Assembly: GCA_021785355.1 (NCBI GenBank) | Contig: JAJYFR010000002.1 | Location: 10,529 to 74,528, forward strand | Reading direction: 5' to 3' | From: a bacterium | GTDB lineage: Bacteria; Patescibacteriota; Dojkabacteria; JAKAPS01; JAJZLI01 | DNA: 64,000 bases | Part shown: positions 19,792 to 35,530 of the stretch, one piece after another | Numbering within the stretch: the first letter of the stretch is position 1 | Layout: each line of letters starts with the position of its first letter | Position numbers and translations under genes: made by a program | Notes under the pieces: model-generated | The model's input: only the letters and a program-made list of their open reading frames with translations | Database searches by the model: none | Told to the model about the DNA's origin: nothing

Positions 19792-20544
19792 ATGCTAAAA
19801 AAGATTTTTGTTATATTAATTTTTGTTATACTAACGACATCATTTAATTATGCTCAGACTGTATTTAAAGAATTTCCTAATATATATAAAAATATACATT
19901 CAGGAGATATCGTTTCTTTAGAAAATGGAAAAATAGTCCCATCTCAGAATATAAATGCAAATTCTGTTCTAGGTATAGAATCTAATAATATAATTAATGA
20001 TAGTAATAGCGTTATCCATGTCTTCTCTTCTGGAATTATAAATACCTATGTATCTAATATAAATGGAAATGTGAATAAAGGGGATCATATTACAACTTCT
20101 AGTCTTCCAGGAATAGCAAAAAAATTGAATTCTCAAGGATTAAGTATAGGTGAAGCTGTTCAAAGCTTTAATATTAATAAAGCCACAAGATATAAAAATA
20201 CAAATATATATATAGAGAAAATTCCTATATCTATTAATATAGAATATTTAAATCTTATTAATGGAGCTTCTAATATATATCCTTTTTCATACAATATAGG
20301 AAATACTCTGGGGGTAAAACAGATAAATATATTTCAGATAATCTCTGTACTTATAATTTTATTTATATCCATAATAATATCAGTTACAACTATAATTAAA
20401 AATGCTAGGGATACTGTAAAAAAAACTGCAAGAAACCCTTTAGCAAAAAAAGGAATATTAAATCATTTTTATTTTAAAATACTTATTGCTATGTCTATTT
20501 TCACATTAGGAATCATATTGGGATATCTAATAATAATATTTTAA
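19792..20544 (+). CDS. Secreted protein with a C-terminal TM anchor. Paralog of 28511..29302.
   Basis: Signal peptide and shared motifs VSNINGxxxKGDxIT.S..PG, RNPLxK and a terminal GYLIxIF TM, compared with 28511..29302. Confidence 0.5.
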   Translation: MLKKIFVILIFVILTTSFNYAQTVFKEFPNIYKNIHSGDIVSLENGKIVPSQNINANSVLGIESNNIINDSNSVIHVFSSGIINTYVSNINGNVNKGDHITTSSLPGIAKKLNSQGLSIGEAVQSFNINKATRYKNTNIYIEKIPISINIEYLNLINGASNIYPFSYNIGNTLGVKQINIFQIISVLIILFISIIISVTTIIKNARDTVKKTARNPLAKKGILNHFYFKILIAMSIFTLGIILGYLIIIF

Positions 20545-20801
20545 AAATTAATAAAAACTTCAGCTAAATCATCTTCAAATATAAGTATTCCATTTTTTAT
20601 TTCAATAGAAGTATCTGTTAAAAAATTTTCAACCCTATACCTTATCTCTTTTCCAGTTAACAATGTTATGAAATTTGTATGAGATTTCAATATATCAAAA
20701 TCTCCTAAAGAATTTTTAGAAGAAAAAGAATATACTTTCCCTGAGAATATCTCACCTGATAGAGAAAGTATTTTTAAAAAAAATAATTCTTTACTATCCA
20801 T
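20541..20801 (-). CDS. atpC: F-type ATP synthase epsilon subunit (beta-sandwich domain only).
   Basis: LKILSLSGEIFSGKVYSFSSKNSLGDFDILKSHTNFITLLTGKEIRY matches the epsilon N-terminal domain. At 86 aa it lacks the C-terminal helical hairpin. Confidence 0.65.
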   Translation of the reverse strand: MDSKELFFLKILSLSGEIFSGKVYSFSSKNSLGDFDILKSHTNFITLLTGKEIRYRVENFLTDTSIEIKNGILIFEDDLAEVFINF

Positions 20802-20803
20802 AT

Positions 20804-22978
<2,175 letters not shown>

Positions 22979-22982
<4 letters not shown>

Positions 22983-24391
22983 TTATTTTTCTCTGGTATT
23001 AAATACTTAACTAAAGAATCATTTAGATTATCTTTTGAAAAATCTTCAATATATTGAATTTCTTTAACCCTTTCTTTTATATAACTGATATCTTTTATAT
23101 TTAAATCTGGTAAATCGTAGAGAAGTAAAAGTGTTAAAAGAACTCTTTGTTCAAAAAATGTAAAAACCTCACCCATATTTTGAGTAAATAATTCTTGTAA
23201 TTTTTCTCCTAAATATATATCTTCCAGAACACTATCCGAAAGATTTGTGCCAAAATGAGAAAATTTTTCTGACTGAGTATATTTCACTAAAGCCAAATTA
23301 AGTTCATCTGCAATATCTTGCATATATTTACTCTGCACTCTTTTACCTATCCTGGATATAGATATAGAAGAATTAATAGCAGGCCTTCTTCCCTTAAGAA
23401 AAATATCTGTATCAAAAAATATTTGACCATCAGTTATTGATATTATATTAGTCTGTATATAACTAGATATATCATTCTCGTATGTAGATACTATTGGTAA
23501 AGCTGTCAGAGAACCTTTATGTTGTGACGTTATTCCTGCTCTCTCCAGTAACTGAGAATGTTGATAGAAAATATCAGATGGATAAGAATCTCTACCTGGA
23601 GGTGTATTTGAAAGTAAAGATAACTCTCTGTAACTTTTGGCATGCTCTAATAAATCATCGTATACTACAATGACATCTTTTTCTTTCTCCCAAAAATATT
23701 CTGCTATACTACACCCGACAAAAGGTGAGAGATATGATATTACAGGAAGAGAAGTTGAAGGAGAAACAACTACAGTTGTATATTCCATTGCCCCACTATC
23801 TTTTAAATAAGATATAATTGATTGAACATCATCTTTCTTCTTTCCTATAATTACATATACTACTAAAGATTTATCCTTTTGGTTTTTTATTATATCTAGA
23901 ACAAAAGATGTTTTTCCTGTTTTATTATCTCCCAGTATAGCCTCTCTTTGCCCTTTAGCTATTGGAATAAGAGTGTCTACTAATGAAAAACCTGTTTCAA
24001 TCTGAGACGTAATATCAGCTCTTTCCATTACACCAAAAGACTCATGAAAAATTTCTCTACTCTCTTCAAGATCAACTATATTCATAGAATCTAGAGGGTT
24101 TCCAAAAATATCTATAACTCTACCTAAAAGATTAAAACCTACAGAAACTTCAAATTTTGATTTATAAAAAAGAACTATTTCTCCTGATAATATACCCCTA
24201 TTCTCAAGTATTAAAATCAAAGCTTCATCCTCATATATTGACCTAACATAACCTATTGAATCAGATTCAAATATCAATATAGCTCCAACATTTAGATTTC
24301 TAAATCCTTTAACTTTTGCAGTAATACTGTTTATAGAAACAACTTTACCTATACTTGTACCTGTATGAAGAAGATCTTTAAATTTTATCAT
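22979..24391 (-). CDS. atpA: F-type ATP synthase alpha subunit.
   Basis: P-loop GDNKTGKTS. VYVIIGKKKDDV...YDDLLEHAKSYRELSLL matches alpha. Confidence 0.95.
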
Positions 24392-24866
24392 TATTAATTA
24401 TACTAATTATTTTATCTGTATTTGCATTTAAAACTGAATCAAAAGAATAATCTAGATACTTTGAAGAAGTTTCTAATATTATTCCTCCTCCTATTGAATC
24501 TTTAATTCTATATTTTAATAAAACATCTTTATCTATATTTTTTTGAAAATATTCTTTTAATTTAAATTTAAAACCTTCATCTATTTCTTTTGATAAAAAT
24601 ATTGTTATTATTTTTGCATTATTTTTTATATATAACAAAGAGTCTTTAATCTTATTCATTGACACTGAATTTTTAAATACATCTCCATATATATTCTCAA
24701 TAATACCTTTCAGTGTCATATCAATATTTAAAATATCTTCCCCTTCATCTTTTATTTTATCTTTCAAATTTAAATCTAATAAAGAATTTATATACTCCTC
24801 TATAGATATTAAAAATATTTCTAATTCTTCAAAATCTTTTATTTGATAAAACAAATTATAATCCAT
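24378..24866 (-). CDS. atpH: F-type ATP synthase delta (OSCP) subunit.
   Basis: C-terminal IKDSIGGGIILETSSKYLDYSFDSVL matches the delta consensus (LIGG...DgSv). Position upstream of alpha. Confidence 0.65.
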   Translation of the reverse strand: MDYNLFYQIKDFEELEIFLISIEEYINSLLDLNLKDKIKDEGEDILNIDMTLKGIIENIYGDVFKNSVSMNKIKDSLLYIKNNAKIITIFLSKEIDEGFKFKLKEYFQKNIDKDVLLKYRIKDSIGGGIILETSSKYLDYSFDSVLNANTDKIISIINNDKI

Positions 24867-25614
24867 CTTTGATTTCTTCTATATGTTTATTTAATACATC
24901 AAAGATATACTCTTCCTGATCTTTCAAGGATACAGACAAATTCAATACTTCTTTAACAACTTTATTAACAACTAATACAGCATCTTTATTTAAAGAATCT
25001 ATTATTTGCTGCCTTACTTTAGATGATTCATCCTTAATCTCATCAGTAAGAGAATTAAACTTAGATGTCTCCTCACTTACCATTTGACTTATCATAGATG
25101 TAGTTTTTTCTTCAATTTCTCTTAAATCTTTATCATATAGCTCTAAATTCATTTTTGAAAAATTAGATAAATTAGTTTGAGTTTTATCCGATATATCTTG
25201 AAATAAAATATTTAAAGAATGTTCAAAATTACTCAAGACTTTATCATAAATATTTTTAAAATCATTAGACTTATCATTAAATGAATTTATAGAAGTTTCA
25301 ATTTTAGAAGTAAAATCAGAATTAATAGCTTCAATATTTTTCTCTTTAATATTGATTGAATTTTCAATTTCTTTTAATTTTATTTCATATATTTTACGTA
25401 TATCATTTTCAAATTCTAAAGAAAGATTATCATACATTGTATTCATTTTATCTATTAGATTTTTTGATGACAAAGATAGTGATTTTTTTATATCCTGCTC
25501 CTCTTCTTTTAGGGAAGAATTTATAAAAGAATTATTTTTCTTTTTGAGAACAAAATATATAACCAGTAAAACTAGAAGAAAAAATAATAGTATATAAAGA
25601 TAATAATATAACAT
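24856..25614 (-). CDS. atpF: ATP synthase b-like stator subunit (single N-terminal TM plus a long coiled coil).
   Basis: Called from architecture and its position upstream of delta. At 252 aa it is longer than typical b subunits. Confidence 0.45.
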   Translation of the reverse strand: MLYYYLYILLFFLLVLLVIYFVLKKKNNSFINSSLKEEEQDIKKSLSLSSKNLIDKMNTMYDNLSLEFENDIRKIYEIKLKEIENSINIKEKNIEAINSDFTSKIETSINSFNDKSNDFKNIYDKVLSNFEHSLNILFQDISDKTQTNLSNFSKMNLELYDKDLREIEEKTTSMISQMVSEETSKFNSLTDEIKDESSKVRQQIIDSLNKDAVLVVNKVVKEVLNLSVSLKDQEEYIFDVLNKHIEEIKDGL

Positions 25615-25660: not shown

Positions 25661-26464
25661 TTACAACAGAATATAAATAAAATATATAATAAAAAGTAAT
25701 ATATTGAATATGAATATATATAAATTAAGAGTTGTATGATCTAAAGCTAAAATAATAGCAGATATTATATATAAAACCAGATAATCTCTTATAAATCTTA
25801 AAATATTTTTAAATTTAGAATCATTCCTAATTTTTCTTACAAAGAACAAGAAAAGCATTGTCCCTAAAATAATTACAGATATTAAGATATTAATAGCACC
25901 AATTATAAATCCAGGAGTATCTATAGATCCAAATATATTATAATTAGTACTACTATTAGGATAATAAAAAATATTTATAGATTTTTTTATAACAATAGGA
26001 TACTCAGTATATGTTGTATCAAGAGCAATAACATTATACATTAAAGGTTTATTATAACTGGACTCCAAGAAAGCTATAGCTTCTCCATTCTTATTAGTAG
26101 GATTTTTAGGCTGAGTTATTATAAGCGAGTCTTTTTCCTGAGCAGATGAAAGTATAACTCTTTGATTAGATAAAGGATGATCTTTATTTGAAAAAACAAA
26201 AATCTTAACTTCTACCCTCTTTTTATAATACAAATTATTAGAAGAGAGTGATATTTTTGTGTTATTTGCTATTAAATTAGACCAATTCAATAAAAGAGGA
26301 GTATAACCTCCTACAGTTACACTACTTGCATTTATTGGTTTTACAAAAAATATAAATACTAATAGTAATAATATTACCTTTTTAAGAATCTGGAAACGAT
26401 TTGCCATAATAAAAAGATAAATAACAAAACTAATAAAAATATAAACCATAGAGGTAATACCCAA
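25661..26464 (-). CDS. Signal-peptide protein with a beta-rich ectodomain and 2-3 C-terminal TM helices. The probable true start is Met20 at ~26407 (MANRFQILKK...).
   Basis: It is not an ATP synthase a-subunit: there is a large soluble domain and no conserved Arg-containing helix. It is the first gene of the minus-strand surface-protein operon. Confidence 0.4.
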   Translation of the reverse strand: MGITSMVYIFISFVIYLFIMANRFQILKKVILLLLVFIFFVKPINASSVTVGGYTPLLLNWSNLIANNTKISLSSNNLYYKKRVEVKIFVFSNKDHPLSNQRVILSSAQEKDSLIITQPKNPTNKNGEAIAFLESSYNKPLMYNVIALDTTYTEYPIVIKKSINIFYYPNSSTNYNIFGSIDTPGFIIGAINILISVIILGTMLFLFFVRKIRNDSKFKNILRFIRDYLVLYIISAIILALDHTTLNLYIFIFNILLFIIYFIYILL

Positions 26465-27315
26465 AATGTGCTAGTACTTTGAGTTGTAGTTATTGTATTA
26501 TAACCATATGTTAGAATTAGTTTAGCAGTATACTGTCCTAAAAGAAGATTTGATGAATTCCAAGTAGTATTATATATCCTACTATTAACTCCCACTGGAA
26601 GTACTATATTTTTTTGAGGATTGAAAGCTATTGTCTGAATTTTATCTCCAAACATATTATAAATCTCAATAATACCTTGAGGCAATAAATGTACATTACC
26701 TGTATCTACAAATTGGGTTTGAAATTTAACAGGAGTTGAAAGATAAAAGAAATTATTAGCTGAAAATGATTTTATATATCCTGTCTCTTTAGCTAAACCG
26801 TTTATTCTGACTAGAAATAATGAACCTACTGCAGTATTTAGTAATACATTTCCTTGAGACACTCCATTATTAATTTTAGCAAAAACTCCAATAAAATATT
26901 CTCCAGGAAGTGCATTCGAAGAAGCAGATATATTAATGCTCAAATCTGTAGGCACATGAGGAGGTATTAGAGTATTACCATTAGTACTTAACGAAAGATC
27001 TGGATCATTTATATTTCCTACAAAAACTTTCTCAAATTTGGGTTGACCAAATTCATTTGCAGATACAAAATTAGCAAATATAGCACTTACATTTACAGCA
27101 CTATTACTATTATTATAAACCGTGATATCTTGTACTAAACTTTGACCTTTATTAATATTTACATCTGTTAGTATAGGAGAGACAGTTATACCGCCAACAC
27201 TTGCACCTTCTTTTGAAGAATTTGAGTTATTTATATTTCCTACAAAACTACTTTGAGCATAAAGAGGAGATGGCAGTATAAATAACAAAAGTAAAATTAA
27301 TAATATTTTTTTCAT
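26374..27315 (-). CDS. Cell-surface anchor protein with signal peptide, beta-rich ectodomain, single C-terminal TM and a basic tail (DUF916/DUF3324-like, CscA-like). Paralog of 31212..32096 and 33499..34371.
   Basis: GYIKSFSANNFFYLS...TGNVHLLPQGIIEIYNMFG...LILTYGYNT aligns with GFVKTFSTSNFFNFS...TGDIELAPQGFIIIKNLWG...LILNYGYGS in 31212..32096. C-terminal TM followed by SRFLKR. Confidence 0.5.
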   Translation of the reverse strand: MKKILLILLLLFILPSPLYAQSSFVGNINNSNSSKEGASVGGITVSPILTDVNINKGQSLVQDITVYNNSNSAVNVSAIFANFVSANEFGQPKFEKVFVGNINDPDLSLSTNGNTLIPPHVPTDLSINISASSNALPGEYFIGVFAKINNGVSQGNVLLNTAVGSLFLVRINGLAKETGYIKSFSANNFFYLSTPVKFQTQFVDTGNVHLLPQGIIEIYNMFGDKIQTIAFNPQKNIVLPVGVNSRIYNTTWNSSNLLLGQYTAKLILTYGYNTITTTQSTSTFWVLPLWFIFLLVLLFIFLLWQIVSRFLKR

Positions 27316-27326
27316 GCAATTTCATA

Positions 27327-28427
27327 TTAGAAGTTACCACTAGCTAGATATGTAACATTATCTGTATAGATACCGGCAGGCGTCACAACTGAAATAGCTG
27401 AAAGATAATTCACTTGTAAAGTAACTAAGTATATTGGTGAAGTTGTACTTGCAAGTAATGTAGGTGCAAGATTCAATCCTCCAACTGAATCACCTGTTCC
27501 ATTATATGGTGAAGCAACAGTAAGCGTTCCTACAACTCCTCCAGAACCAGCAGTTGAAGTTACTGCTGAATTTACTCCATATCCTTCTGTCCCTGCAGCA
27601 AGAGTTGCTGTTGCACTAGGAATAGTATGTGTTGCTAAAGAATTATATAAACCTGGATTAGTACCATTGCCTTGATCATATACAGTCACACTAGCACCTG
27701 ATCTAGCATTTGTTGATAAAGTAAGTGTTGTAGCAGGAGAAGAAGTATTAACTGATCCTATTTGCAAAACTCCAAAATTTGTAGCATTAGAAGACAATGC
27801 AAAAGTTATCTCAGGAGTTACTCTTGCTGTAACAGCAACTGTGCTATTAGATAATATAGGTACAGCTAAATATCCATCATCTGATGCAGAATCTGTAACA
27901 TCTATAACATATTCATTCACAGAAGTAGATGCATCAGGAGGATTAGTTGCAGTTATACCATTAATGACAATAGCATTTCCAGATGCAATTGCAGCTGTAG
28001 TTGTTATGACAACTTCAGTAAATGTATATCCTGAAAAATTAGAATCTGATACACCTGTAGTTACTACAAAATTCGTATTTGTAGCAACTGTAGTCCCTGC
28101 AGCCGTAACAGTTGCGCCTGAAGAAACAGCTACTGCAGAAAATCCTGTATTAGTCTGCCCACCTCCTACCGTAGAACCTGTTTGAAAATACACATTTATT
28201 GTAGATCCTGTACCAAGTGCAGTAGGTGCTGTATATGTAATTTTATGATTAACTCCTGTTGCAGATATAGATTCAGGACCATTTGTTCCTATACCTGAAG
28301 AAGATAATGTGTCAGATATTGGAGAAAGTGATGCTGCATTTAAACTAAAAAACTCTAAGAATGGAGATAGTGAAACCACTAAAACCATAGATAAAAATAA
28401 CATGAAAGCTTTTCTTGTTTTATACAT
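27327..28427 (-). CDS. Secreted surface protein. Its N-terminal beta-rich domain is shared with 29365..31209, and it carries the C-terminal WxL-like module.
   Basis: Signal peptide ...LNA|AS. INGITATNP block is shared with the 614-aa protein. C-terminus ...TPAGIYTDNVTYLASGNF. Confidence 0.5.
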   Translation of the reverse strand: MYKTRKAFMLFLSMVLVVSLSPFLEFFSLNAASLSPISDTLSSSGIGTNGPESISATGVNHKITYTAPTALGTGSTINVYFQTGSTVGGGQTNTGFSAVAVSSGATVTAAGTTVATNTNFVVTTGVSDSNFSGYTFTEVVITTTAAIASGNAIVINGITATNPPDASTSVNEYVIDVTDSASDDGYLAVPILSNSTVAVTARVTPEITFALSSNATNFGVLQIGSVNTSSPATTLTLSTNARSGASVTVYDQGNGTNPGLYNSLATHTIPSATATLAAGTEGYGVNSAVTSTAGSGGVVGTLTVASPYNGTGDSVGGLNLAPTLLASTTSPIYLVTLQVNYLSAISVVTPAGIYTDNVTYLASGNF

Positions 28428-28510
28428 ATGCGCACTAAATTAATAATATTAAAATCTATTACAAAAACTCTATATTAAATGAAATAATATGTCAATAGTT
28501 TTTTTAATAT

Positions 28511-29302
28511 TTAAAATATTAATATTAAATATCCTAATACTAAAGTTACCATAAAAATAAATATTAGGGATATAATAATAAAAACAAGATTTTTTTCTAT
28601 AGAATCTTTTGATAAAGGATTTCTAGATATACCCAATAAAGAGTGTTTTAAAGAGACACTAACTCCATATATAAGAGTAAATACACCAACTGATATTATT
28701 AAAATAGCTATAAGAGAGTTAAAAAAAGAAACATTTTTTCCAACAACTGCTTTACCAAATGAAAGTAATATTCCCGAAAAATTATTATTATATGTAAAAT
28801 ATGATATTCCTAAAAGAACAGGTATTTTTTCTACTAAAATTTGAACACTCTTCCCATTTTGAAAAATAGTTTTTTTATATAAAAAATGTGAGAATGAAAA
28901 ATTACTCAAAGCTTTTCCTAAAATTTTTCCACTCTGGGTATCTTTTTCCCCGACACCAGGGATAATAGAAGATGTTATATAATCCCCTTTTTTAATAACT
29001 CCATTAATATTTGAAACTAAAACATTAACAGTTCCAGAACTTACAACAGGAACATTGCCAGATATACCGGTTGTAATATTACTTTTATAATCAACTACAC
29101 CTACAAGATTATTATCATTCGGAGATGTAGTTGGATATACACCTAATACAATATTATTTCCTCCAACAGAAACTATTGAATTATTTGAAATATTTTTTAC
29201 TAATGGAGCAAAATATTGAGATATACTCTGAGCATAAAGAGAAGAAGATAGAAAAAATAATATAGTTAATATATAAAAACTGATTTTAAAAAATTTATAC
29301 AT
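28511..29302 (-). CDS. Secreted protein with a C-terminal TM anchor. Paralog of 19792..20544.
   Basis: Shared motifs VSNINGVIKKGDYITSS..PGVGEK, RNPLSK and the terminal TM ...LGYLILIF. Confidence 0.5.
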   Translation of the reverse strand: MYKFFKISFYILTILFFLSSSLYAQSISQYFAPLVKNISNNSIVSVGGNNIVLGVYPTTSPNDNNLVGVVDYKSNITTGISGNVPVVSSGTVNVLVSNINGVIKKGDYITSSIIPGVGEKDTQSGKILGKALSNFSFSHFLYKKTIFQNGKSVQILVEKIPVLLGISYFTYNNNFSGILLSFGKAVVGKNVSFFNSLIAILIISVGVFTLIYGVSVSLKHSLLGISRNPLSKDSIEKNLVFIIISLIFIFMVTLVLGYLILIF

Positions 29303-29330
29303 ATTATTATATTATTTGAAATCCCAATAA

Positions 29331-29358
29331 TTGACAATAACACAACCTATTATATAAT
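29331..29358 (+). promoter_or_regulatory. Sigma70-like promoter TTGACA-N16-TATAAT, ending 6 nt before the ATG of 29365..31209 (candidate leaderless transcript).
   Basis: Read directly from the sequence: ttgacaataacacaacctattatataattaaactATG. Confidence 0.35.
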
Positions 29359-29364
29359 TAAACT

Positions 29365-31209
29365 ATGAAAAAAATGTTTTCTCTGTTATTTATAATTTTT
29401 ATATTTTTTGTATTAGCATCTATATTTACTCTTAATGCAGCACGATCAACTCCCATAGAAGACATTATGAGTAATAACACAGTATCTGCACAAAGCAATA
29501 ATAACCTTCTTATTACAGCACAATCAGGTCTTCCAGCTAATGCATCTATTACAATAGTATTTCCATCTGCTTTTAGTTCTATTAATACATCTGCTGCGAC
29601 TATAAATCTTACAGGGGGAGCATTTAGTGTATCTGGAAATACTATAACTATAACAACAACTACACCTATAGAAGCTCCTGGATTTCAAATTAATATAAAT
29701 GGAATAACTGCTATAAATCCTGCAACCGCATCAAGTACAACTACTCAATATATTATAAATTTTTCAGATACAGCAGGAGATAGTGCAGGAATTGGTGTTG
29801 TTATAATTCCTTCATCAGGATATGGTTCTGGACCAGCTGGAGATAAATATGAGCAAGCTATTACAATAAATAGTACTAACACAAGTACTCTAACTAATTA
29901 CCAAGTTAAAGTAACTCTAAATACTCAAGCATTAATTACAGCAGGAGAGATGAGATCTGATTGTGCTGACATCAGATTTACAGATTCTTCTGGAAACCTA
30001 CTTCAATATTGGCTAGAAGGAGGATGTAATACATCTACAACTCAAATTTGGGTAAAAATACCTAGCATAACTGCATCTGCAAATACAATTATATATTTAT
30101 ATTATGGATCTCCTAATGCAGTATCTACAAGTAATGGAGGTGCGACTTTTAACTATTTTGACCAAGGAAATTCTATTTCTAATTGGGTTCAAGTAGGTTC
30201 TGCAGGACAAATCACATCTATAGGAGATCCTTCTCCTTCATATTATACTAACAGTATAAATGGAGATTATATGTATGAGAATATAGGGCTTACACCTAAT
30301 GAAGCTGTAATATTTAATGGGAATACAACTGTTCTTGGAGATTTTTATTTTCTTACAAATTCTACAGGGGCAGGACAGATGTATAGATTTGGAATTAGTG
30401 CTGGTTGGTTTGGTTTTGCAACAACAAATTCTTGGACATCATGGAATTCACCTGGAGGCTCAGGTCTTCTTTCGAATACTTGGTATAAATTTGAAATAGC
30501 AATTACTTCTTCTACTTCAGCATCTTTATATTACAAACAGACTACAGGAGACTCTCCTTTAATTAACGGTACTCTACTTTCTACAAATACAATTATTAAT
30601 GACGGAGGATATATTGGTCTAATAGGAGATGCCGCTGGAACAGGTATAACTTATTGGGATAATATTATTGTTCGACAATACTCTTCTCCAGAACCAACAA
30701 CAACTATCTCTTCTTCTGTTACTAATCTTAACAACAACCAAGTAGAATTAACATTGAATGTTACTCCATATATTACATTTGGAGTAAGTTCTAATAGTGT
30801 TAATTTAGGAATAGTCTCTTATATAAATCCTACTGTACAGAACAATACTCTTTCTCTTACAACAAATGCTACTAATGGTGCTAATATAACTGTACAAGAT
30901 CAATATGCTGGATTATATAATTCTCTTGCTTCATACACTATTCCATCTATAACAGAAACTCTTGCTTCCGGAATAGAAGGATATGGAATTAATGCAAATT
31001 CTTCAAATATGTCTATCTCTTTTCCTTTTAGTGGTACGGGAGATAGTATTGGAGGATTAAGTATCTCTCCTGCAGAAATACTTTCATATATCTCTACTCC
31101 TATTCAATCAGGAAGTGTTAATGTTAACTATATTGCATCAGCCTCCAATATTACTCCTACAGGAATATATTCTGACAACATTACCTTTATTGCTACTGGA
31201 AATTTCTAA
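29365..31209 (+). CDS. Large secreted surface protein: shared N-terminal domain, then DUF2341-like, LamG-like (concanavalin-type lectin), and the C-terminal WxL-like module.
   Basis: DIRFTDSSGNLLQYWLEGG...IWVKIPSITASANTIIYLYYGSP matches the DUF2341 consensus. A LamG-like region follows. C-terminus ...TPTGIYSDNITFIATGNF. Confidence 0.6.
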   Translation: MKKMFSLLFIIFIFFVLASIFTLNAARSTPIEDIMSNNTVSAQSNNNLLITAQSGLPANASITIVFPSAFSSINTSAATINLTGGAFSVSGNTITITTTTPIEAPGFQININGITAINPATASSTTTQYIINFSDTAGDSAGIGVVIIPSSGYGSGPAGDKYEQAITINSTNTSTLTNYQVKVTLNTQALITAGEMRSDCADIRFTDSSGNLLQYWLEGGCNTSTTQIWVKIPSITASANTIIYLYYGSPNAVSTSNGGATFNYFDQGNSISNWVQVGSAGQITSIGDPSPSYYTNSINGDYMYENIGLTPNEAVIFNGNTTVLGDFYFLTNSTGAGQMYRFGISAGWFGFATTNSWTSWNSPGGSGLLSNTWYKFEIAITSSTSASLYYKQTTGDSPLINGTLLSTNTIINDGGYIGLIGDAAGTGITYWDNIIVRQYSSPEPTTTISSSVTNLNNNQVELTLNVTPYITFGVSSNSVNLGIVSYINPTVQNNTLSLTTNATNGANITVQDQYAGLYNSLASYTIPSITETLASGIEGYGINANSSNMSISFPFSGTGDSIGGLSISPAEILSYISTPIQSGSVNVNYIASASNITPTGIYSDNITFIATGNF

Positions 31210-31211
31210 AA

Positions 31212-32096
31212 ATGAAAAAATTAATACCTATTATAGTCTTTCTAATTATACTTATACCTCAAAGAATATTTGCCTCTACTAACTATAATACTCTTACCCT
31301 CACTCCTACTCTTACAAGAATTTCTTTATCAAGAGGAGATATATACAAAGGAAAAATCAAAATAATAAATAATTCTGTAAAAACAGCATATATAAGTGTA
31401 GGAATAGTAGGATTTAGACAAAATGGAAATAGTAATACCCCCTTATTTTCAAAAAAAATTAATAATAAATCTCAGGCAATTCATTGGGTACATATAAAAA
31501 ATATACAAAGCATAAAAGGGAATACAAACTTAGAATTAAAATATATTATAAATATACCTACCAATGCATCTTCAGGTGGACATTATATAGCAATAATAAT
31601 AAATAAAAGGATAGGAAATACCAATATTGAAGAATCTTTAAGATCACTAATTATTATAGATATTAAAGGTAAAATGAAAATCTCAGGATTTGTAAAAACA
31701 TTTTCTACATCAAATTTTTTTAATTTTTCAAATAAAATAGTATTTAATATAAATTTTGAAAATACAGGAGATATAGAACTTGCTCCTCAAGGTTTTATAA
31801 TAATAAAAAATTTATGGGGAGGTGTTGTAAAAATTATACCTATAAATCCAACAGGTTCTTTAGATCTATCTCATTCTCAAAGAAAATATCAAAACATATG
31901 GAATAATAAAGGATTTTTATATGACAGCGGAATATATAATGCACAATTGATACTTAATTATGGATATGGAAGTACTTTTTATAATATAAATAAAAATATA
32001 AAATTTTACATAATTAATCCTTTGTATGTAATTATATTATTAGGTATAATAATATTTATATATATAATAATAAAAAAGAAATGGGGAAAAAAATAA
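31212..32096 (+). CDS. Cell-surface anchor protein (DUF916/DUF3324-like, CscA-like). Paralog of 26374..27315.
   Basis: Signal peptide, beta-rich ectodomain and a C-terminal TM followed by KKKWGKK. Alignment with 26374..27315 as given for that feature. Confidence 0.5.
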   Translation: MKKLIPIIVFLIILIPQRIFASTNYNTLTLTPTLTRISLSRGDIYKGKIKIINNSVKTAYISVGIVGFRQNGNSNTPLFSKKINNKSQAIHWVHIKNIQSIKGNTNLELKYIINIPTNASSGGHYIAIIINKRIGNTNIEESLRSLIIIDIKGKMKISGFVKTFSTSNFFNFSNKIVFNINFENTGDIELAPQGFIIIKNLWGGVVKIIPINPTGSLDLSHSQRKYQNIWNNKGFLYDSGIYNAQLILNYGYGSTFYNINKNIKFYIINPLYVIILLGIIIFIYIIIKKKWGKK

Positions 32097-33499
32097 TTTT
32101 CACAATAAGTTTTATACTTTTTTTTGTACTTATAACTAGAGTATATGCTCAAGTTCCCCCTACAGATACATCTTCATCATACATATTAACAGATCCTGTT
32201 TTTGGAGAAAGTGGTCCATATACACAATCTTCTCCAAGTTTTCAAGAAAAATCTACTTTAGGACAACTAGTTACTGGAGTATCTCAATCTACAAATTTTA
32301 TACTTAAATCTGGATTTGAATATTATTCAGGACAATCAGTACCTTCTATTACAATGAGTATTAATACTAATTCTATAAATTTTGGAAATCTTCTACCAGG
32401 TACTATTTATAAATCTCCCACAAATACAATTATCACTATCTCTTCTAATTCAGAAATGGGATATAACCTTTATGCTTCAGAAAATAATAATCTTGTGAAT
32501 AATCAAGGATTCCAGATTCCTCCTGTAAATAATGGAGCTACTAGTACTACTGCAGCAGCATATACTTCTACTGCATATACAGGTCTAGGATATAACTGTA
32601 GTACTTCTAACTCATTTGAACAAGCAGTTTTAGCTGACAACCCTATTGCTTTCTGGGCACTTTCAGAAACTACAGGAACTACTGCATATGATCTGTCTGG
32701 GAATGGAAATAATGGGACATATACGGGAGGATATACTCAAGGAGAACAAGGTCCAATTTCAAATTCTAACCTTGATAAATCAACATATTTTAATGGATCT
32801 ACAAGTTATATAAATTTACCTCAAAATTTAACAAATAATGCAAATTTTTCAACACTTACATTCTCTTTATGGTTTAAGACTACATCTGATGGAACATTGC
32901 TTGGTAATCAAAACAGCACAGTAGGTATTACACCAGGTTTTGATAATAGTTTGTTATATATAGGAACTAATGGATATTTATGTGGAGGAATAGATATTCC
33001 TCCAGGATTTTGTAATAGTACCAATATTAATGATGGTAAATGGCATAATGCAGTGTTAACTGTAAATAACTCTTCGGGTCAATCTTTATATCTAGATGGA
33101 CAATTAGTAAATACTGCTGGAGTTCCAAATACATTTAGTACGAATTATACACAAATAGGAGTTGGTTATGATCAAGGTTGGACCTATGCTTCTGCTGGAT
33201 GGTTTTATTTTAAAGGAGAAATTTCTAATGTTGCTGTATATCATACAGCCTTAACACAATCTCAAATTCAGACTATTTTTAATGCTGGAATAGATAATCA
33301 ATCACCTTTCTGTAATAATGATTTTATAAATACAAATTATTACAGACAATTATCTTCTACACCTACTCAATTTGCATCATTCTCTTCTATTGCTAATAAT
33401 CAGAGTATTGCTGTAGGATATGCTGTAAATATTCCCGCAACACAAGCATCTGGTAATTATACAAATACTATTACATATACTTTAGCAGGTAACTATTAA
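32081..33499 (+). CDS. Secreted LamG-domain protein. The WxL-like module appears split around the LamG insertion.
   Basis: DLSGNGNNGTYTGG...FSLWFKTTSDGTLLGN...DGKWHNAVLTVNNSSGQSLYLDGQLV...FKGEISNVAVYHTALTQSQI is a classic LamG (Laminin_G_3) pattern. The N-terminal SITMSINTNSINFGNLLPG...GYNLYA resembles the first half of the shared module, and the C-terminal ...ATQASGNYTNTITYTLAGNY resembles its second half. Confidence 0.6.
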   Translation: MGKKIIFTISFILFFVLITRVYAQVPPTDTSSSYILTDPVFGESGPYTQSSPSFQEKSTLGQLVTGVSQSTNFILKSGFEYYSGQSVPSITMSINTNSINFGNLLPGTIYKSPTNTIITISSNSEMGYNLYASENNNLVNNQGFQIPPVNNGATSTTAAAYTSTAYTGLGYNCSTSNSFEQAVLADNPIAFWALSETTGTTAYDLSGNGNNGTYTGGYTQGEQGPISNSNLDKSTYFNGSTSYINLPQNLTNNANFSTLTFSLWFKTTSDGTLLGNQNSTVGITPGFDNSLLYIGTNGYLCGGIDIPPGFCNSTNINDGKWHNAVLTVNNSSGQSLYLDGQLVNTAGVPNTFSTNYTQIGVGYDQGWTYASAGWFYFKGEISNVAVYHTALTQSQIQTIFNAGIDNQSPFCNNDFINTNYYRQLSSTPTQFASFSSIANNQSIAVGYAVNIPATQASGNYTNTITYTLAGNY

Positions 33500-34371
33500 T
33501 GAAAAAATATTCTATAATCTTTGCAATACTTTTTTTTCTAACTTTTTCTCAAAGTGTATATGCATCTACAAATAAAGAAACATTGAGAGTAACTCCTGCA
33601 TATATATCAATTACAAAAAGTTCTAATACTAATACCTCTGAGAATTTATCTATACTAAATGAATCTTTAATACCTTTAGAAGTATCTCTTTCTCAGGGAA
33701 ATATAGAATATATAAATAAAAAACTCACAATCACTCAGAATAATGCAATAACAAATATAAACAGCTGGATTAAAATCACACAAAAATCTTTCATAATACA
33801 ACCTAAAGCTACAATAAATATACCTGTGGACATAAATATTCCTAAAAATACAAAAAATGGATCATATAACGGAGAAATTACAATATCTAATATAACTAAA
33901 AATCTTTCAGGACAAAGCAGAGTAGAGGGAAGTATTGTAATTAATGTATTTGTAAATATAAGAGGAAAGAATAAAAACTACTCAAATATAAATAGTAAGA
34001 TTTCATACCTTCCTTTATTCATAAATACTCTTCCTTTAAATTTAGATTATACTCTTAATAATCCTGGACCTTACAATAATGCAGCAATAATAAATATAAA
34101 TACACAATCTTTGTTTTATTCAAAAAATACGCCTACTAATGTAATCAACCTTTTAGTAGAACAGACAAGGTATAAAACATTTCAAATTCAAAATATCCCT
34201 TGGGGAATATACAAAATATCTTTTAATACAAATAATATAGGAGAGAAAATAAATAAAGAAAAATCTTTCTATATTATTTATCTACCTTACTATATTTACC
34301 TAATATTAGGAATAATAATTATTATTATAATTTATTTAAAAGTAAGAAAATCTAAAGTTAAATATTTTTGA
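33499..34371 (+). CDS. Cell-surface anchor protein (DUF916/DUF3324-like). Third paralog.
   Basis: Signal peptide, TLRVTPAYISI... beta-rich ectodomain and a C-terminal TM followed by KVRKSKVKYF. Start overlaps the previous stop (TAATG). Confidence 0.45.
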   Translation: MKKYSIIFAILFFLTFSQSVYASTNKETLRVTPAYISITKSSNTNTSENLSILNESLIPLEVSLSQGNIEYINKKLTITQNNAITNINSWIKITQKSFIIQPKATINIPVDINIPKNTKNGSYNGEITISNITKNLSGQSRVEGSIVINVFVNIRGKNKNYSNINSKISYLPLFINTLPLNLDYTLNNPGPYNNAAIININTQSLFYSKNTPTNVINLLVEQTRYKTFQIQNIPWGIYKISFNTNNIGEKINKEKSFYIIYLPYYIYLILGIIIIIIIYLKVRKSKVKYF

Positions 34372-34402: not shown

Positions 34403-35530
34403 TTAAGATAAAAAAGATAAAAAATTATCTTTATTTATAAGAGTAATAGAACTATCTTTATATGTATCTAAAAATTCAACGTATTTTTTAAATTTATCTG
34501 AAGTATATTTAATTTCAAATCCCTCTAGTCTTCCACTTACATCCTCAATATAATCTATTTCTTTTTTATCATATGTACGCCAGAAATAATTATTTATATT
34601 TCTCTCTCTATTATTATTATATTTAATTCTTTCAGATATAATAAAATTCTCCCATAAAGCGCCTATATCTTGTCTTAAAGATAAGATATTAAAATTTTTA
34701 ATAATTGCATTTCTTATTCCCAAATCATAAAAATAAATTTTTCGTAATTTACCTATTTCTTTTCTTAGGTTTCTACTATAAGGTTTTAATGAAAAAATTA
34801 TAAAAGCCTTTTCTAAAATTTGTATATATCTTGATACAGTATCTTTATCTATATTTAAAAGATTAGCAAGTTCGTTATAAGACACCTCATTTCCTATTTG
34901 TAATGCTAATGCTTGAAGTAATTTAGTTAACACTTCACTATTTCTAATATTTTGAAATTGTAATATATCCTTAAATAAGTAGCTAGAAGCTATTTCTTCT
35001 ATTTTTATTTGTGCATCTAGATTTGATCCAGAAATAATATCTGGATACATACCAAATCTAAGCATATCTTCTAAAAGACGATTTATTTCAATTTTAGTTT
35101 TTTTTTCTAATATTTCTGATATAGACAAAGGATATAGATGAAATTCAAATTTTCTTCCTGTTAATGGCTCACTAATACTATTAGATAGTTCAAAAGAAGA
35201 AGATCCTGTCGCTATAACTTGTACTAAAGGAAAATTGTCAATTATAAGTTTAAGAGTTAATCCAATGTTATTTATTCTTTGTGCCTCATCTATTATTAAA
35301 AAAGTATTATTCCCTATTATTTTTTTTATTTCAGTAGAGGTTTTATTTTCAAAAGAATATCTTATATCTGGCTCATCTGCATTTAGGTATAAAGAATTTT
35401 TTATATATTTCTCTTGTATTTTCTTTACTAGAGTTGTTTTACCTACCTGTCTTGCTCCATATATTATGATAGCTTTTCCTTTAAATAATTTTTTTTCTAT
35501 ATTATCTTGTATTAATCTTTTATATTCCAT
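34403..35530 (-). CDS. AAA+ ATPase of the AAA_14/DUF4143 family.
   Basis: Walker A GARQVGKTTL and Walker B FLIIDEAQ. The C-terminal region is typical of DUF4143-containing ATPases. Confidence 0.7.
   Translation of the reverse strand: MEYKRLIQDNIEKKLFKGKAIIIYGARQVGKTTLVKKIQEKYIKNSLYLNADEPDIRYSFENKTSTEIKKIIGNNTFLIIDEAQRINNIGLTLKLIIDNFPLVQVIATGSSSFELSNSISEPLTGRKFEFHLYPLSISEILEKKTKIEINRLLEDMLRFGMYPDIISGSNLDAQIKIEEIASSYLFKDILQFQNIRNSEVLTKLLQALALQIGNEVSYNELANLLNIDKDTVSRYIQILEKAFIIFSLKPYSRNLRKEIGKLRKIYFYDLGIRNAIIKNFNILSLRQDIGALWENFIISERIKYNNNRERNINNYFWRTYDKKEIDYIEDVSGRLEGFEIKYTSDKFKKYVEFLDTYKDSSITLINKDNFLSFLS

Follow-up and report, generated by a model that had tools for sequence, protein, structure and literature searches.

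Pam pili have been solved by cryo-EM in the CPR bacterium Ca. Mycosynbacter amalyticus, where they comprise the pilins PamA, PamB and PamE, the tip PamT, the TM-anchored chaperones PamC and PamD and the anchor PamR (Troman et al., bioRxiv 10.64898/2026.03.03.709456). The TM-anchored two-domain proteins of this system are read as PapD/FimC-like chaperones and not as passive anchors, and pam operons are reported to adjoin ATP synthase genes (bioRxiv 10.64898/2026.03.03.709456). In Lactobacillales and Listeria, Csc/WxL clusters encode a WxLIP (CscA) and the WxL proteins CscB and CscC (PMC10599100; PDB 9i1y, 9i25); WxLIP is proposed to bind WxL proteins at the surface and to stabilise them, and an AF2 prediction has WxLIP supplying the strand that closes a gap in the WxL beta-sandwich (PMC10599100). 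A WxL-WxLIP complex is present in the PDB (9i25). Finally, the haloarchaeal Tat-fimbriae, or tafi, are built of TafA/E subunits, the LamG-bearing TafC, which was put at the filament end by AlphaFold modelling, and the membrane terminator TafF (PMC11821415, PMC12337348).

In the window (the whole stretch of 64,000 nucleotides that was analysed), two divergent operons adjoining ATP synthase genes encode eight secreted or membrane proteins: three anchors (A1-A3), three cargo proteins (C1-C3), X and Y (Table 1). We consider it likely that these genes specify a pilus of the Pam type in a monoderm CPR bacterium, that is, a usher-less, chaperone-assisted, donor-strand fibre. The best reading is a divergent variant of this type, in which the pilins are Cys-free, lectins are carried as payloads and each pilin has its own chaperone. 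An earlier note on this DNA had proposed a previously undescribed apparatus, a description that no longer applies as Pam pili have been solved in a CPR bacterium (bioRxiv 10.64898/2026.03.03.709456). The six ORFs that it listed (A1-A3 and C1-C3) are present at the coordinates given there, although its inventory was incomplete: the conserved X was not described, and Y, which falls inside the range, was left uninterpreted.

Table 1. Features of the locus in window positions, ordered along the window.
Feature	Position	Strand	Description
Y	25661..26407	-	signal peptide, one Ig-like ectodomain, about three C-terminal TM segments
A1	26374..27315	-	membrane-anchored WxLIP-family protein, predicted chaperone with PapD-like fold, paired with pilin C1
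C1	27327..28427	-	predicted two-domain Pam-type pilin, likely shaft subunit
C1 donor-strand motif VAVTARV	27819..27839	-	residues 197-203; predicted by pattern
Promoter-like site upstream of C1	28467..28495	-	TTGACA-17-TAGAGT, 10/12; consensus match only
X	28511..29302	-	signal peptide, ~160-aa beta-rich ectodomain, two C-terminal TM segments with a conserved RNPLSK loop between them
Divergent promoter region	29309..29358		consensus matches on both strands
C2	29365..31209	+	large predicted pilin; NTD ~residues 2-148, CTD 467-614, as in C1 (limits from HMMs; aligned with C1 and P0026)
C2 DUF2341	29959..30174	+	residues 199-270; PF10102, E 5.1e-24
C2 donor strand VELTLNV	30742..30762	+	residues 460-466; putative
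A2	31212..32096	+	WxLIP-family predicted chaperone, paired with C2; anchor-family member
C3	32081..33499	+	PamT-like predicted tip adhesin
C3 split pilin CTD	32336..32605 and 33347..33496	+	residues 86-175 and 423-472; CTD-HMM iE 2.2e-8 and 4e-8
C3 LamG lectin	32792..33271	+	residues 238-397; PF13385, E 5.5e-15; between the CTD halves
A3	33499..34371	+	WxLIP-family predicted chaperone, paired with C3; anchor-family member

The synteny check that the note had called for showed that the eight-gene layout is kept whole in related genomes, with 56-72% protein identity, and the arrangement is therefore not due to chance. Each pilin gene is closely joined to the gene that follows it (C1 to A1, C2 to A2, C3 to A3), the A2 start lying 2 nt past the C2 stop codon and the A3 start overlapping that of C3. 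We compared 40 related CPR loci from MAGs labelled Patescibacteria, Saccharibacteria, Paceibacterota or Minisyncoccia, several only as 'bacterium' and four as 'uncultured Gammaproteobacteria'; in 37 of them the pilin gene is followed immediately 3' by an anchor gene, and two of the three exceptions are contig ends. Directly downstream of Y are the genes for the b-like, delta, alpha, gamma, beta and epsilon subunits of the ATP synthase; the locus shares with the pam operons both this position and its restriction to CPR. Hydrophobic segments at the N-termini of the locus products are consistent with leaders for Sec export, and the way in which signal peptides and membrane anchors are distributed suits a cell that has no outer membrane.

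C1 and C2 end in a common module, 44% identical over 176 aa (E 1.5e-39), and their N-terminal domains are likewise related (E 3e-7). C1 contains an NTD (~residues 34-192), a linker with the putative donor strand (197-203) and a CTD (204-366). It matched the NCBIfam model NF058581 (CPR_Pam_pilin_C) with an E of 2.1e-6 and 27.9 bits (residues 213-366 on positions 3-148 of 148), and C2 did so with an E of 2.2e-5 and 24.6 bits (residues 474-614, the whole 148-position model being covered), both scores lying below the curated cut-off of 55 bits. The same model is matched by 12 of the 16 pilin-family members (best E 1.6e-13), with scores among CPR relatives of up to 40.3 bits against that cut-off. 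At the level of sequence, homology of the C1 and C2 CTDs to the Pam pilin domain is supported, with the curated cut-off unreached. In the AF2 model of C1 (pLDDT 78.9) nine strands at 59-190 are followed by a low-confidence linker (195-202) and a beta-rich CTD, which suggests a two-domain pilin with a nine-strand NTD, a single linker strand and a putatively open Ig-like CTD, the NTD-linker-CTD architecture published for PamA/B. Fold searches with the pilin model returned only generic Ig-like or pilin-like matches. The predicted donor-strand motif of C1 coincides with the low-pLDDT segment, and the pattern V-x-V-x-A-x-V followed by Pro is kept in 15 of 16 aligned pilin-family sequences; in CPR pilins of ~200 aa the motif stands directly after the signal peptide, as an N-terminal extension.

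The lectin-like payloads are carried by the other two cargo proteins. In C2 an insertion of ~300 aa between NTD and CTD contains DUF2341 and an unassigned beta-rich domain. LamG had been ascribed to two cargo proteins, one of them also with DUF2341; we found LamG in C3 and DUF2341 in C2, but no LamG match in C2 at E<=1, and none in its orthologues. Similarly, the statement that all three cargo proteins end in the same module holds for C1 and C2 but not in this simple form for C3, whose CTD is parted into two halves by a LamG-bearing insertion of ~245 aa. Positions 1-10 of the CTD-HMM, which represent the donor strand, are unmatched in C3, and the donor-strand motif is absent from it. C3 matched NF058579 (CPR_pilus_PamT) with an E of 2.1e-12 and 47 bits, against an equivalog cut-off of 240 bits, over residues 5-151 (positions 6-142 of 241); the rest of the PamT domain is displaced by the LamG insertion, and therefore C3 is not an equivalog. 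Furthermore, residues 184-402 matched NF052521 (TafC; E 9e-8). The C3 orthologues swap payloads (2xLamG; Kelch+LamG), which fits a host-specificity tip.

The presence of these domains raises the alternative of a surface or secreted glycan-binding or -processing complex unrelated to adhesion, such as a nutrient-scavenging lectin array or a cell-envelope scaffold, in which LamG and DUF2341 would be the functional parts and the Ig-like proteins would be mere scaffolds. LamG and DUF2341 are members of the concanavalin-like lectin/glucanase superfamily, the membrane proteins X and Y are uncharacterised and the locus is conserved beside energy-metabolism genes, all of which would suit such a complex. 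However, Pfam and NCBIfam profile searches of all eight proteins revealed no catalytic domain, C1, which is the most conserved cargo protein, carries no lectin, and the pilin-chaperone signature accounts for all core genes, so that we regard this alternative as very improbable.

Through the NCBIfam models and the published description of the M. amalyticus system, the locus could be compared with the Pam pilus part by part. Both have a single-domain tip pilin family and two-Ig-domain chaperones with a C-terminal TM helix, and both lack an usher; no protein of the locus matched an usher family in Pfam or NCBIfam. They differ in the number of chaperones, which is one per pilin here (three) and two for four pilins in M. 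amalyticus, and in the pilins themselves, which are Cys-free here whereas PamA/B have 2-3 Cys pairs. The DUF2341-containing insertion of C2 and the LamG within the PamT-like domain of C3 are further differences, and the terms lectin, laminin, DUF2341 and adhesin are unmentioned in the text of the Pam preprint (bioRxiv 10.64898/2026.03.03.709456). A recognisable PamE or PamR is missing from the locus, which has X and Y instead.

The anchor proteins have been described as three paralogues distantly related to DUF916, and our data bear this out. Blastp relates A1 to A2 (E 5e-22) and A2 to A3 (E 2e-4), with A1 and A3 connected via the family profile only. A C-terminal TM segment and a basic tail are present in all three; the N-terminal hydrophobic segment was flagged in A1 and A2 only, although by eye the A3 leader MKKYSIIFAILFFLTFSQSVYA, unflagged by the hydropathy scan, resembles a signal peptide. 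In the AF2 model of A1, a helix at residues 289-312 comes after two beta domains, and the predicted fold of A1-A3 matches that of PapD/CfaA-type pilus chaperones, as expected for PapD/FimC-like chaperones with a C-terminal TM helix. The alignment of the anchor family with seven Firmicute WxLIPs gave an hhalign probability of 98.9% (E 1.5e-17) over 258 columns and both Ig-like domains, compared with 0.3% for the control against FimC. PF06030 (WxLIP_PGBD) gave sub-threshold matches in 8 of 16 anchor-family members, the best from the window being A3 (20.6 bits, E 4.9e-4), and the relatives P0183 (35.9 bits) and P0056 (28.1 bits) exceed its cut-off of 27.3; the top PDB sequence match for the anchors is EfmWxLIP1 (E 1.3e-3). 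On this sequence evidence, A1-A3 are true homologues of the Firmicute WxLIP/CscA proteins, with their DUF916 (PF06030), DUF3324 and C-terminal TM helix. This homology, which is absent from the Pam pilus preprint (bioRxiv 10.64898/2026.03.03.709456) and from the paper on WxL systems (PMC10599100), is the most interesting by-product of our analysis.

Likeness to the Csc/WxL clusters extends further. The A proteins and WxLIP share a signal peptide, two Ig-like domains and a C-terminal TM helix, one or more subunit genes lie directly upstream of the WxLIP gene, the wider CPR family shows a 'large + small subunit + WxLIP-like' layout, and binding by strand insertion is predicted in both systems. 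The gene content and order that the earlier note compared to Csc/WxL can thus be kept for a large subunit, a small subunit and a TM-anchored protein with two Ig-like domains, but not for WxL cargo. In fact, PF13731 (WxL) had no match at E<=1 in C1-C3 or in nine related pilins, the alignment of the CTDs with that of WxL gave an hhalign probability of 0.2%, and the W-x-L motif was not found in the cargo, no CTD containing any Trp (as had been noted for the shared module) and C1 having neither Cys nor Trp over its whole length. These results give no support to the assignment of the cargo as WxL proteins, and nothing in the sequences points to cell-wall binding by their C-terminal module. The LPxTG-like motif, taken as the mark of CscD, is likewise found in none of the eight proteins, so that both the WxL domain and an LPxTG protein are missing from the CPR locus, the cargo of which bears a donor-strand motif and has relatives among proven filament subunits.

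These comparisons bear on a second alternative, a non-filamentous complex of the Csc/WxL type in which the A proteins would be permanent anchors that hold the lectin cargo by strand complementation, with no polymerisation. The bona fide homology of the A proteins to WxLIP, the stabilising role proposed for the latter (PMC10599100) and the one-to-one pairing of cargo and anchor genes, which fits stable heterodimers, speak for it. Nevertheless, we think it unlikely, as no test identified the cargo module as WxL and its match is to the Pam pilin domain, which has filament-forming relatives. Moreover, the conserved alternating-hydrophobic strand before the CTDs, which in the ~200-aa subunits is an N-terminal extension, is a hallmark of donor-strand polymerisation, and it is missing specifically from C3.

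A Pam-type pilus, our preferred reading, also has parallels in other donor-strand fibres. As in chaperone-usher pili, the subunits are predicted to have an N-terminal or linker donor strand together with an incomplete Ig domain, and the proposed tip adhesin combines a lectin with a pilin domain, following the logic of FimH/PapG. By sequence there is no such link (hhalign 0.3% against FimC and 0.1% against FimA), and as no Pfam match to the PapD-family chaperones (PF00345/PF02753) was obtained, the resemblance of the anchors stays at the level of fold. Unlike chaperone-usher systems, this one lacks an usher and an outer membrane, its chaperone is membrane-anchored, and the lectin of C3 is inserted within the pilin domain instead of being fused at the N-terminus. 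With tafi the locus shares a donor-strand fibre, predicted here, in a cell that lacks an outer membrane, a subunit with pilin-like and laminin-G-like domains (TafC there, C3 here) and a membrane protein proposed as fibre terminator or anchor, a role in which Y may act likewise. On the other hand, tafi are exported by Tat, instead of Sec as here, and no chaperone has been described for them; the LamG of TafC is C-terminal, TafC donates a strand and its similarity to C3 is confined to the LamG part.

We infer donor-strand complementation and the order of subunits from these features. Each membrane-anchored A protein would act as a chaperone that lends one of its own strands to the C-terminal Ig-like domain of its pilin and so closes that open fold, as has been predicted for the WxLIP-WxL and PamC/D-pilin complexes (PMC10599100; bioRxiv 10.64898/2026.03.03.709456). 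The V-x-V-x-A-x-V strand, which in an incoming pilin stands between the NTD and the CTD, would then displace the chaperone strand in the previously added subunit. C3 is the candidate adhesin for the distal tip because it has no donor strand and a LamG lectin is inserted in its pilin domain. C1 would form the shaft, and C2, with DUF2341 and its unassigned beta-rich domain, could be built in as a lectin-decorated subunit. The function of such a fibre would be the attachment of an epibiont to glycans on the host cell surface.

Y starts, according to the gene callers, at the ATG at 26407 (248 aa), gives a weak Big_1 match (E 0.0028) and is kept directly after A1 in the related loci L005-L010. Its mature N-terminus, SVTV-x-GYTPLL, is conserved in four orthologues and resembles a pilin donor strand plus TP motif. 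This donor-like strand, together with an Ig domain and about three TM segments, makes Y a candidate for the protein that ends the fibre and ties it to the membrane, as a speculative counterpart of PamR or TafF. X had no match above noise to any Pfam or NCBIfam family; its gene opens the minus-strand operon and is kept upstream of the pilin in L005-L010, and a paralogue lies beyond the ATP synthase operon, at window 19792-20544. Finally, the near-consensus promoter proposed at 29331-29358 is a perfect TTGACA-16-TATAAT on the plus strand (12/12), with its -10 box ending 6 nt before the C2 ATG, though promoter-like sites across the region show no excess (53 found against a shuffled expectation of 64.6). 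On the minus strand, the site at 29337-29309 has a 9/12 match, and its -10 box likewise ends 6 nt short of the X ATG.

The region 25661-34371 (window GC ~26%) contains eight ORFs in two divergent operons, which code for three cargo or pilin-like proteins (C1-C3), three membrane-anchored proteins with two Ig domains (the anchors, A1-A3) and two further membrane proteins, X and Y. The full eight-gene layout is found again in related MAGs with protein identities of 56-72%, so the two operons with three anchors and three cargo proteins that an earlier note had described are real, and X and Y are also part of what is a real, conserved locus, probably for a surface appendage.

ORFs of the probable surface-appendage locus (window coordinates)
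Name	Coordinates	Strand	Feature
X	28511-29302	minus	ORF
C1	27327-28427	minus	ORF
A1	26374-27315	minus	ORF
Y	25661-26407	minus	ORF
C2	29365-31209	plus	ORF
A2	31212-32096	plus	ORF
C3	32081-33499	plus	ORF
A3	33499-34371	plus	ORF

Directly downstream of each pilin-like gene lies an anchor gene, with 2-11 nt between the two or an overlap. According to a hydropathy scan, most of the products carry a Sec-consistent N-terminal hydrophobic leader (that of A3 falls below the threshold of the scan, yet resembles a signal peptide), each of A1-A3 has a single TM segment near the C-terminus plus a basic tail, and X and Y have two and about three TM segments, respectively. The promoter noticed as near-consensus at the divergent junction is in fact a perfect TTGACA-16-TATAAT on the plus strand (29331-29358). 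Only 6 nt separate its -10 box from the C2 start codon (ATG at 29365), and the same distance lies between the -10 box of a 9/12 promoter-like site on the minus strand and the X start codon (ATG at 29302). This spacing leaves no space for a Shine-Dalgarno sequence, and both divergent genes (window 29309-29365) look leaderless. ATP synthase genes (b-like, delta, alpha, gamma, beta and epsilon) come directly after Y on the minus strand; this cluster occupies 20500-25614, Y sits upstream of its b-like gene, and no recognisable gene for the a or c subunit adjoins it. On the other flank, a gene for an AAA_14/DUF4143 ATPase (34403-35530, minus) lies between A3 and a methyltransferase gene, and its absence from the matching position in the related genome GCA_027336225.1 (L005) suggests that it is a recent insertion.

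In an NCBIfam scan no protein of the locus matched above the curated cut-offs, and the matches below them were consistent. In C1 and C2 the last ~150 residues matched the model NF058581, "Pam pilus system pilin subunit", from end to end (E 2e-6 and 2e-5, respectively, below cut-off), a model that is matched by 12 of 16 members of the pilin family with a best E of 1.6e-13. This model and NF058579 stem from a 2026 preprint on the CPR parasite Ca. Mycosynbacter amalyticus, in which cryo-EM of its filaments led to the pilins PamA and PamB, whose open domain takes the linker strand of the neighbouring subunit (bioRxiv 10.64898/2026.03.03.709456). A candidate for such a donor strand is the pattern V-x-V-x-A-x-V-x-P, conserved across the pilin family. 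In C1 its motif VAVTARV corresponds to a low-confidence segment (195-202) of the AF2 model (pLDDT 78.9), placed between nine predicted strands (residues 59-190) and a beta-rich C-terminal domain (CTD). In ~200-aa single-domain pilins of other CPR lineages the pattern comes directly after the signal peptide, and an N-terminal donor strand at this position is also the arrangement of classical chaperone-usher pilins. A PDB sequence search with C1, A1 and the pilin profile, in a set without the PamA/B entries 25PZ and 25QA, gave nothing usable.

The cargo module had been proposed to be of the WxL type, and this did not hold. PF13731, the WxL domain, had no match at E<=1 in C1-C3 and nine related pilins, and the pilin CTD alignment reached an hhalign probability of only 0.2% against nine small WxL proteins. 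Relaxed hhalign settings brought only the C-terminal strand into register (Y-x-D-T-I-T-Y versus Y-x-T-T-L-T-W), without statistical support. Trp is absent from every pilin CTD, as had been noticed for the shared module, and the locus codes for no LPxTG protein. Judged by sequence, the module is not detectably WxL and it matches NF058581 instead, so that the cargo proteins are probably Pam-type pilins, a homology supported at scores below the curated cut-offs.

C3 differs from the other two cargo proteins, C1 and C2 ending in the same C-terminal module as had been claimed for all three, whereas in C3 this module is split by an insertion. Residues 86-175 and 423-472 of C3 correspond to positions 11-97 (iE 2e-8) and 120-169 (iE 4e-8) of the pilin-CTD HMM, and the ~245 residues that split the CTD include a LamG domain (PF13385, E 5.5e-15) at 238-397. 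LamG had been expected in two cargo proteins; C3 has it, but C2 carries DUF2341 (E 5e-24), and neither C2 nor its orthologues showed a Pfam match to LamG. As HMM positions 1-10, which correspond to the donor strand, are unmatched in C3, this protein would be an acceptor domain that lacks the conserved donor-type strand and bears a lectin, as expected of the first, distal subunit. Its N-terminus matched NF058579, "CPR-type pilus protein PamT" (E 2e-12, below the curated cut-off), and among named proteins its LamG region comes closest to TafC (NCBIfam, E 9e-8, also below cut-off). TafC is a LamG-bearing subunit which AlphaFold modelling puts at the end of haloarchaeal Tat-fimbriae, and these are likewise assembled by strand donation (PMC11821415, PMC12337348). 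The payloads differ among C3 orthologues, with two LamG domains in one related CPR locus (L008) and Kelch plus LamG in another (L011), which is the pattern of a specificity determinant.

Like the pilins, the three anchors are paralogous (A1-A2, E 5e-22; A2-A3, E 2e-4), and the AF2 model of A1 (pLDDT 79.2) predicts two beta-sandwich domains and a TM helix, with a long hairpin (residues 138-171) that is modelled with low confidence at its tip. The suggestion that they are distantly DUF916-like was borne out: PF06030 gave sub-threshold matches in eight of 16 anchor family members, two relatives exceeded the Pfam cut-off, and the top PDB match of the family profile was EfmWxLIP1 (E 1.3e-3). In a profile-profile comparison with seven Firmicute WxLIPs (CscA; DUF916, DUF3324 and a TM segment), taken from plasmid-borne WxL clusters, the anchor family aligned with a probability of 98.9% (E 1.5e-17) over 258 columns and both domains. 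By contrast, the same profile gave a probability of 0.3% against FimC, which doubles as a negative control, and no chaperone model in NCBIfam was matched by the anchor homologues. The only sequence-level link of the anchors is to WxLIP, and on this basis they are members of the WxLIP superfamily with a chaperone-like predicted fold. This homology covers the anchor family of the window and 40 CPR loci; from the Saccharibacteria loci among these we infer that PamC and PamD of M. amalyticus would fall in a WxLIP-like family. In its published description WxLIP has two Ig-like domains, perpendicular to each other, and a TM helix, and in an AF2 prediction its hairpin turns into a strand that fills a gap in the WxL beta-sandwich (PMC10599100), in effect donor-strand complementation; a WxL-WxLIP complex has been deposited in the PDB (9i25).

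The 40 loci were retrieved with the pilin alignment from among the GTDB species representatives. Their labels include Patescibacteria, Saccharibacteria, Minisyncoccia and Paceibacterota lineages such as Wolfebacteria, Brennerbacteria, Liptonbacteria and Jorgensenbacteria; for some the label is just "bacterium", for four it is "uncultured Gammaproteobacteria", and Berkelbacteria also appears among the MAGs with related loci. When six-frame ORFs of the 40 loci were searched with our pilin-CTD and anchor HMMs, a pilin-CTD gene was followed by an anchor-family gene on the same strand within 600 bp in 37 of the 40, two of the three exceptions being at a contig edge. The commonest layout is a large CTD-bearing protein (500-1766 aa), a ~200-aa CTD-only protein and a ~305-aa anchor, the same logic as the "large WxL + small WxL + WxLIP" of Csc/WxL clusters. 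In one relative (L010; JAKAWT010000001.1, 9108-20596) the modules recur in a different order, all on one strand and with an additional C1-like pilin, and here the C2-like gene comes after its anchor, not before. The other pilin-anchor pairs are still adjacent there, so these pairs seem to behave as shuffleable cassettes.

The published pam operon adjoins ATP synthase genes and codes for PamT (a single-domain tip pilin), PamR (a terminator/anchor) and the PapD/FimC-like chaperones PamC and PamD, each with a C-terminal TM helix (bioRxiv 10.64898/2026.03.03.709456). The locus probably works like a chaperone-assisted donor-strand pilus of this type, and the sub-cut-off matches support its homology to the Pam family as a divergent relative. 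It differs from the published operon in that every pilin has its own chaperone, the pilins contain no Cys, lectin-type insertions lie in a shaft subunit and within the tip subunit, and X and Y take the place of a recognisable PamE and PamR. It does not count as a Csc/WxL cluster, since the defining WxL domain was tested for and not found, nor as a chaperone-usher system, since there is no usher and no PapD-family sequence signal. With Pam pili already described, the earlier idea of a wholly undescribed system falls. As a Pam-type fibre, it would have the open CTD of freshly exported pilins capped by the membrane-anchored chaperone, whose strand would be displaced by the donor strand of the next subunit; C3 would nucleate the fibre as distal lectin tip, C1 (and C2) would elongate it, and it could mediate attachment to host-cell glycans. 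The conserved mature N-terminus of Y, SVTV-x-GYTPLL, resembles a donor strand plus a TP motif, and a speculative role for Y is to terminate and tether the fibre, as proposed for PamR and TafF.

Most CPR/Patescibacteria are uncultured epibionts, and little is understood of how they recognise host cells and stay attached to them. The locus indicates that divergent members of the Pam family exist far outside the range of the curated models, and exchangeable lectin payloads (LamG, 2xLamG, Kelch+LamG, DUF2341) on tip and shaft subunits are expected of a host-specificity determinant. The main new point is the homology of the CPR anchors to WxLIP, which seems unreported: WxL, DUF916, lectin and DUF2341 are mentioned neither in the Pam preprint nor in its supplement (bioRxiv 10.64898/2026.03.03.709456), WxLIP has been framed as a surface anchor and host-binding protein and not as a pilus chaperone (PMC10599100), and no paper among the top matches listed in a full-text search on WxL together with pili and filaments contains the term WxL. 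This homology links two literatures that do not cite each other in these two works, and it yields a testable idea of what WxL clusters, whose function has long been unclear, do in enterococci, listeriae and lactobacilli. A tentative reading, which we hold to be rather unlikely, is that CPR Pam pili and Firmicute Csc/WxL clusters are two branches of one ancient, monoderm-specific, usher-less system of a membrane-anchored chaperone and strand-complemented surface subunits. The chaperone component is demonstrably homologous and the operon logic is common (small subunit, large payload-bearing subunit, TM chaperone). Should the subunit domains be homologous as well, at a distance that sequence comparison does not reach, WxL proteins may be subunits that are completed by strand complementation and possibly oligomerise, and not simply modules that bind the wall. 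WxLIP would then serve as an assembly chaperone and not as a host-binding anchor, and the present locus, with its Trp-less, Cys-free subunits that bear lectins, would represent a third type within the superfamily.

Two further observations concern relatives of these proteins. The anchor-alignment profile search returned 16,127 representatives, a figure inflated by the LytR_C tail of long-form homologues and not a family size. Most of the best-scoring homologues, all outside the window (P0006, P0007, P0041 and most of P0048-P0195), are such ~540-aa long forms, in which a second TM-like stretch and a LytR_C domain (PF13399) come after the WxLIP-like ectodomain and its TM helix; this architecture appears widespread, and we found no description of it in the Pam pilus or WxLIP literature examined. 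X, for which no family match was obtained, has a paralogue beyond the ATP synthase operon (19792-20544, plus; phmmer E 4e-26, ~30% identity), with which it has in common a VSN-x-NG-x-I-x-x-GD-x-I motif and an RNPLSK loop between two TM segments. Two X-family genes thus bracket the pilus and ATP synthase block, an arrangement kept in relatives, where the counterparts of the paralogue are L005:16831-17598, L008:17951-18721 and L010:2895-3647.
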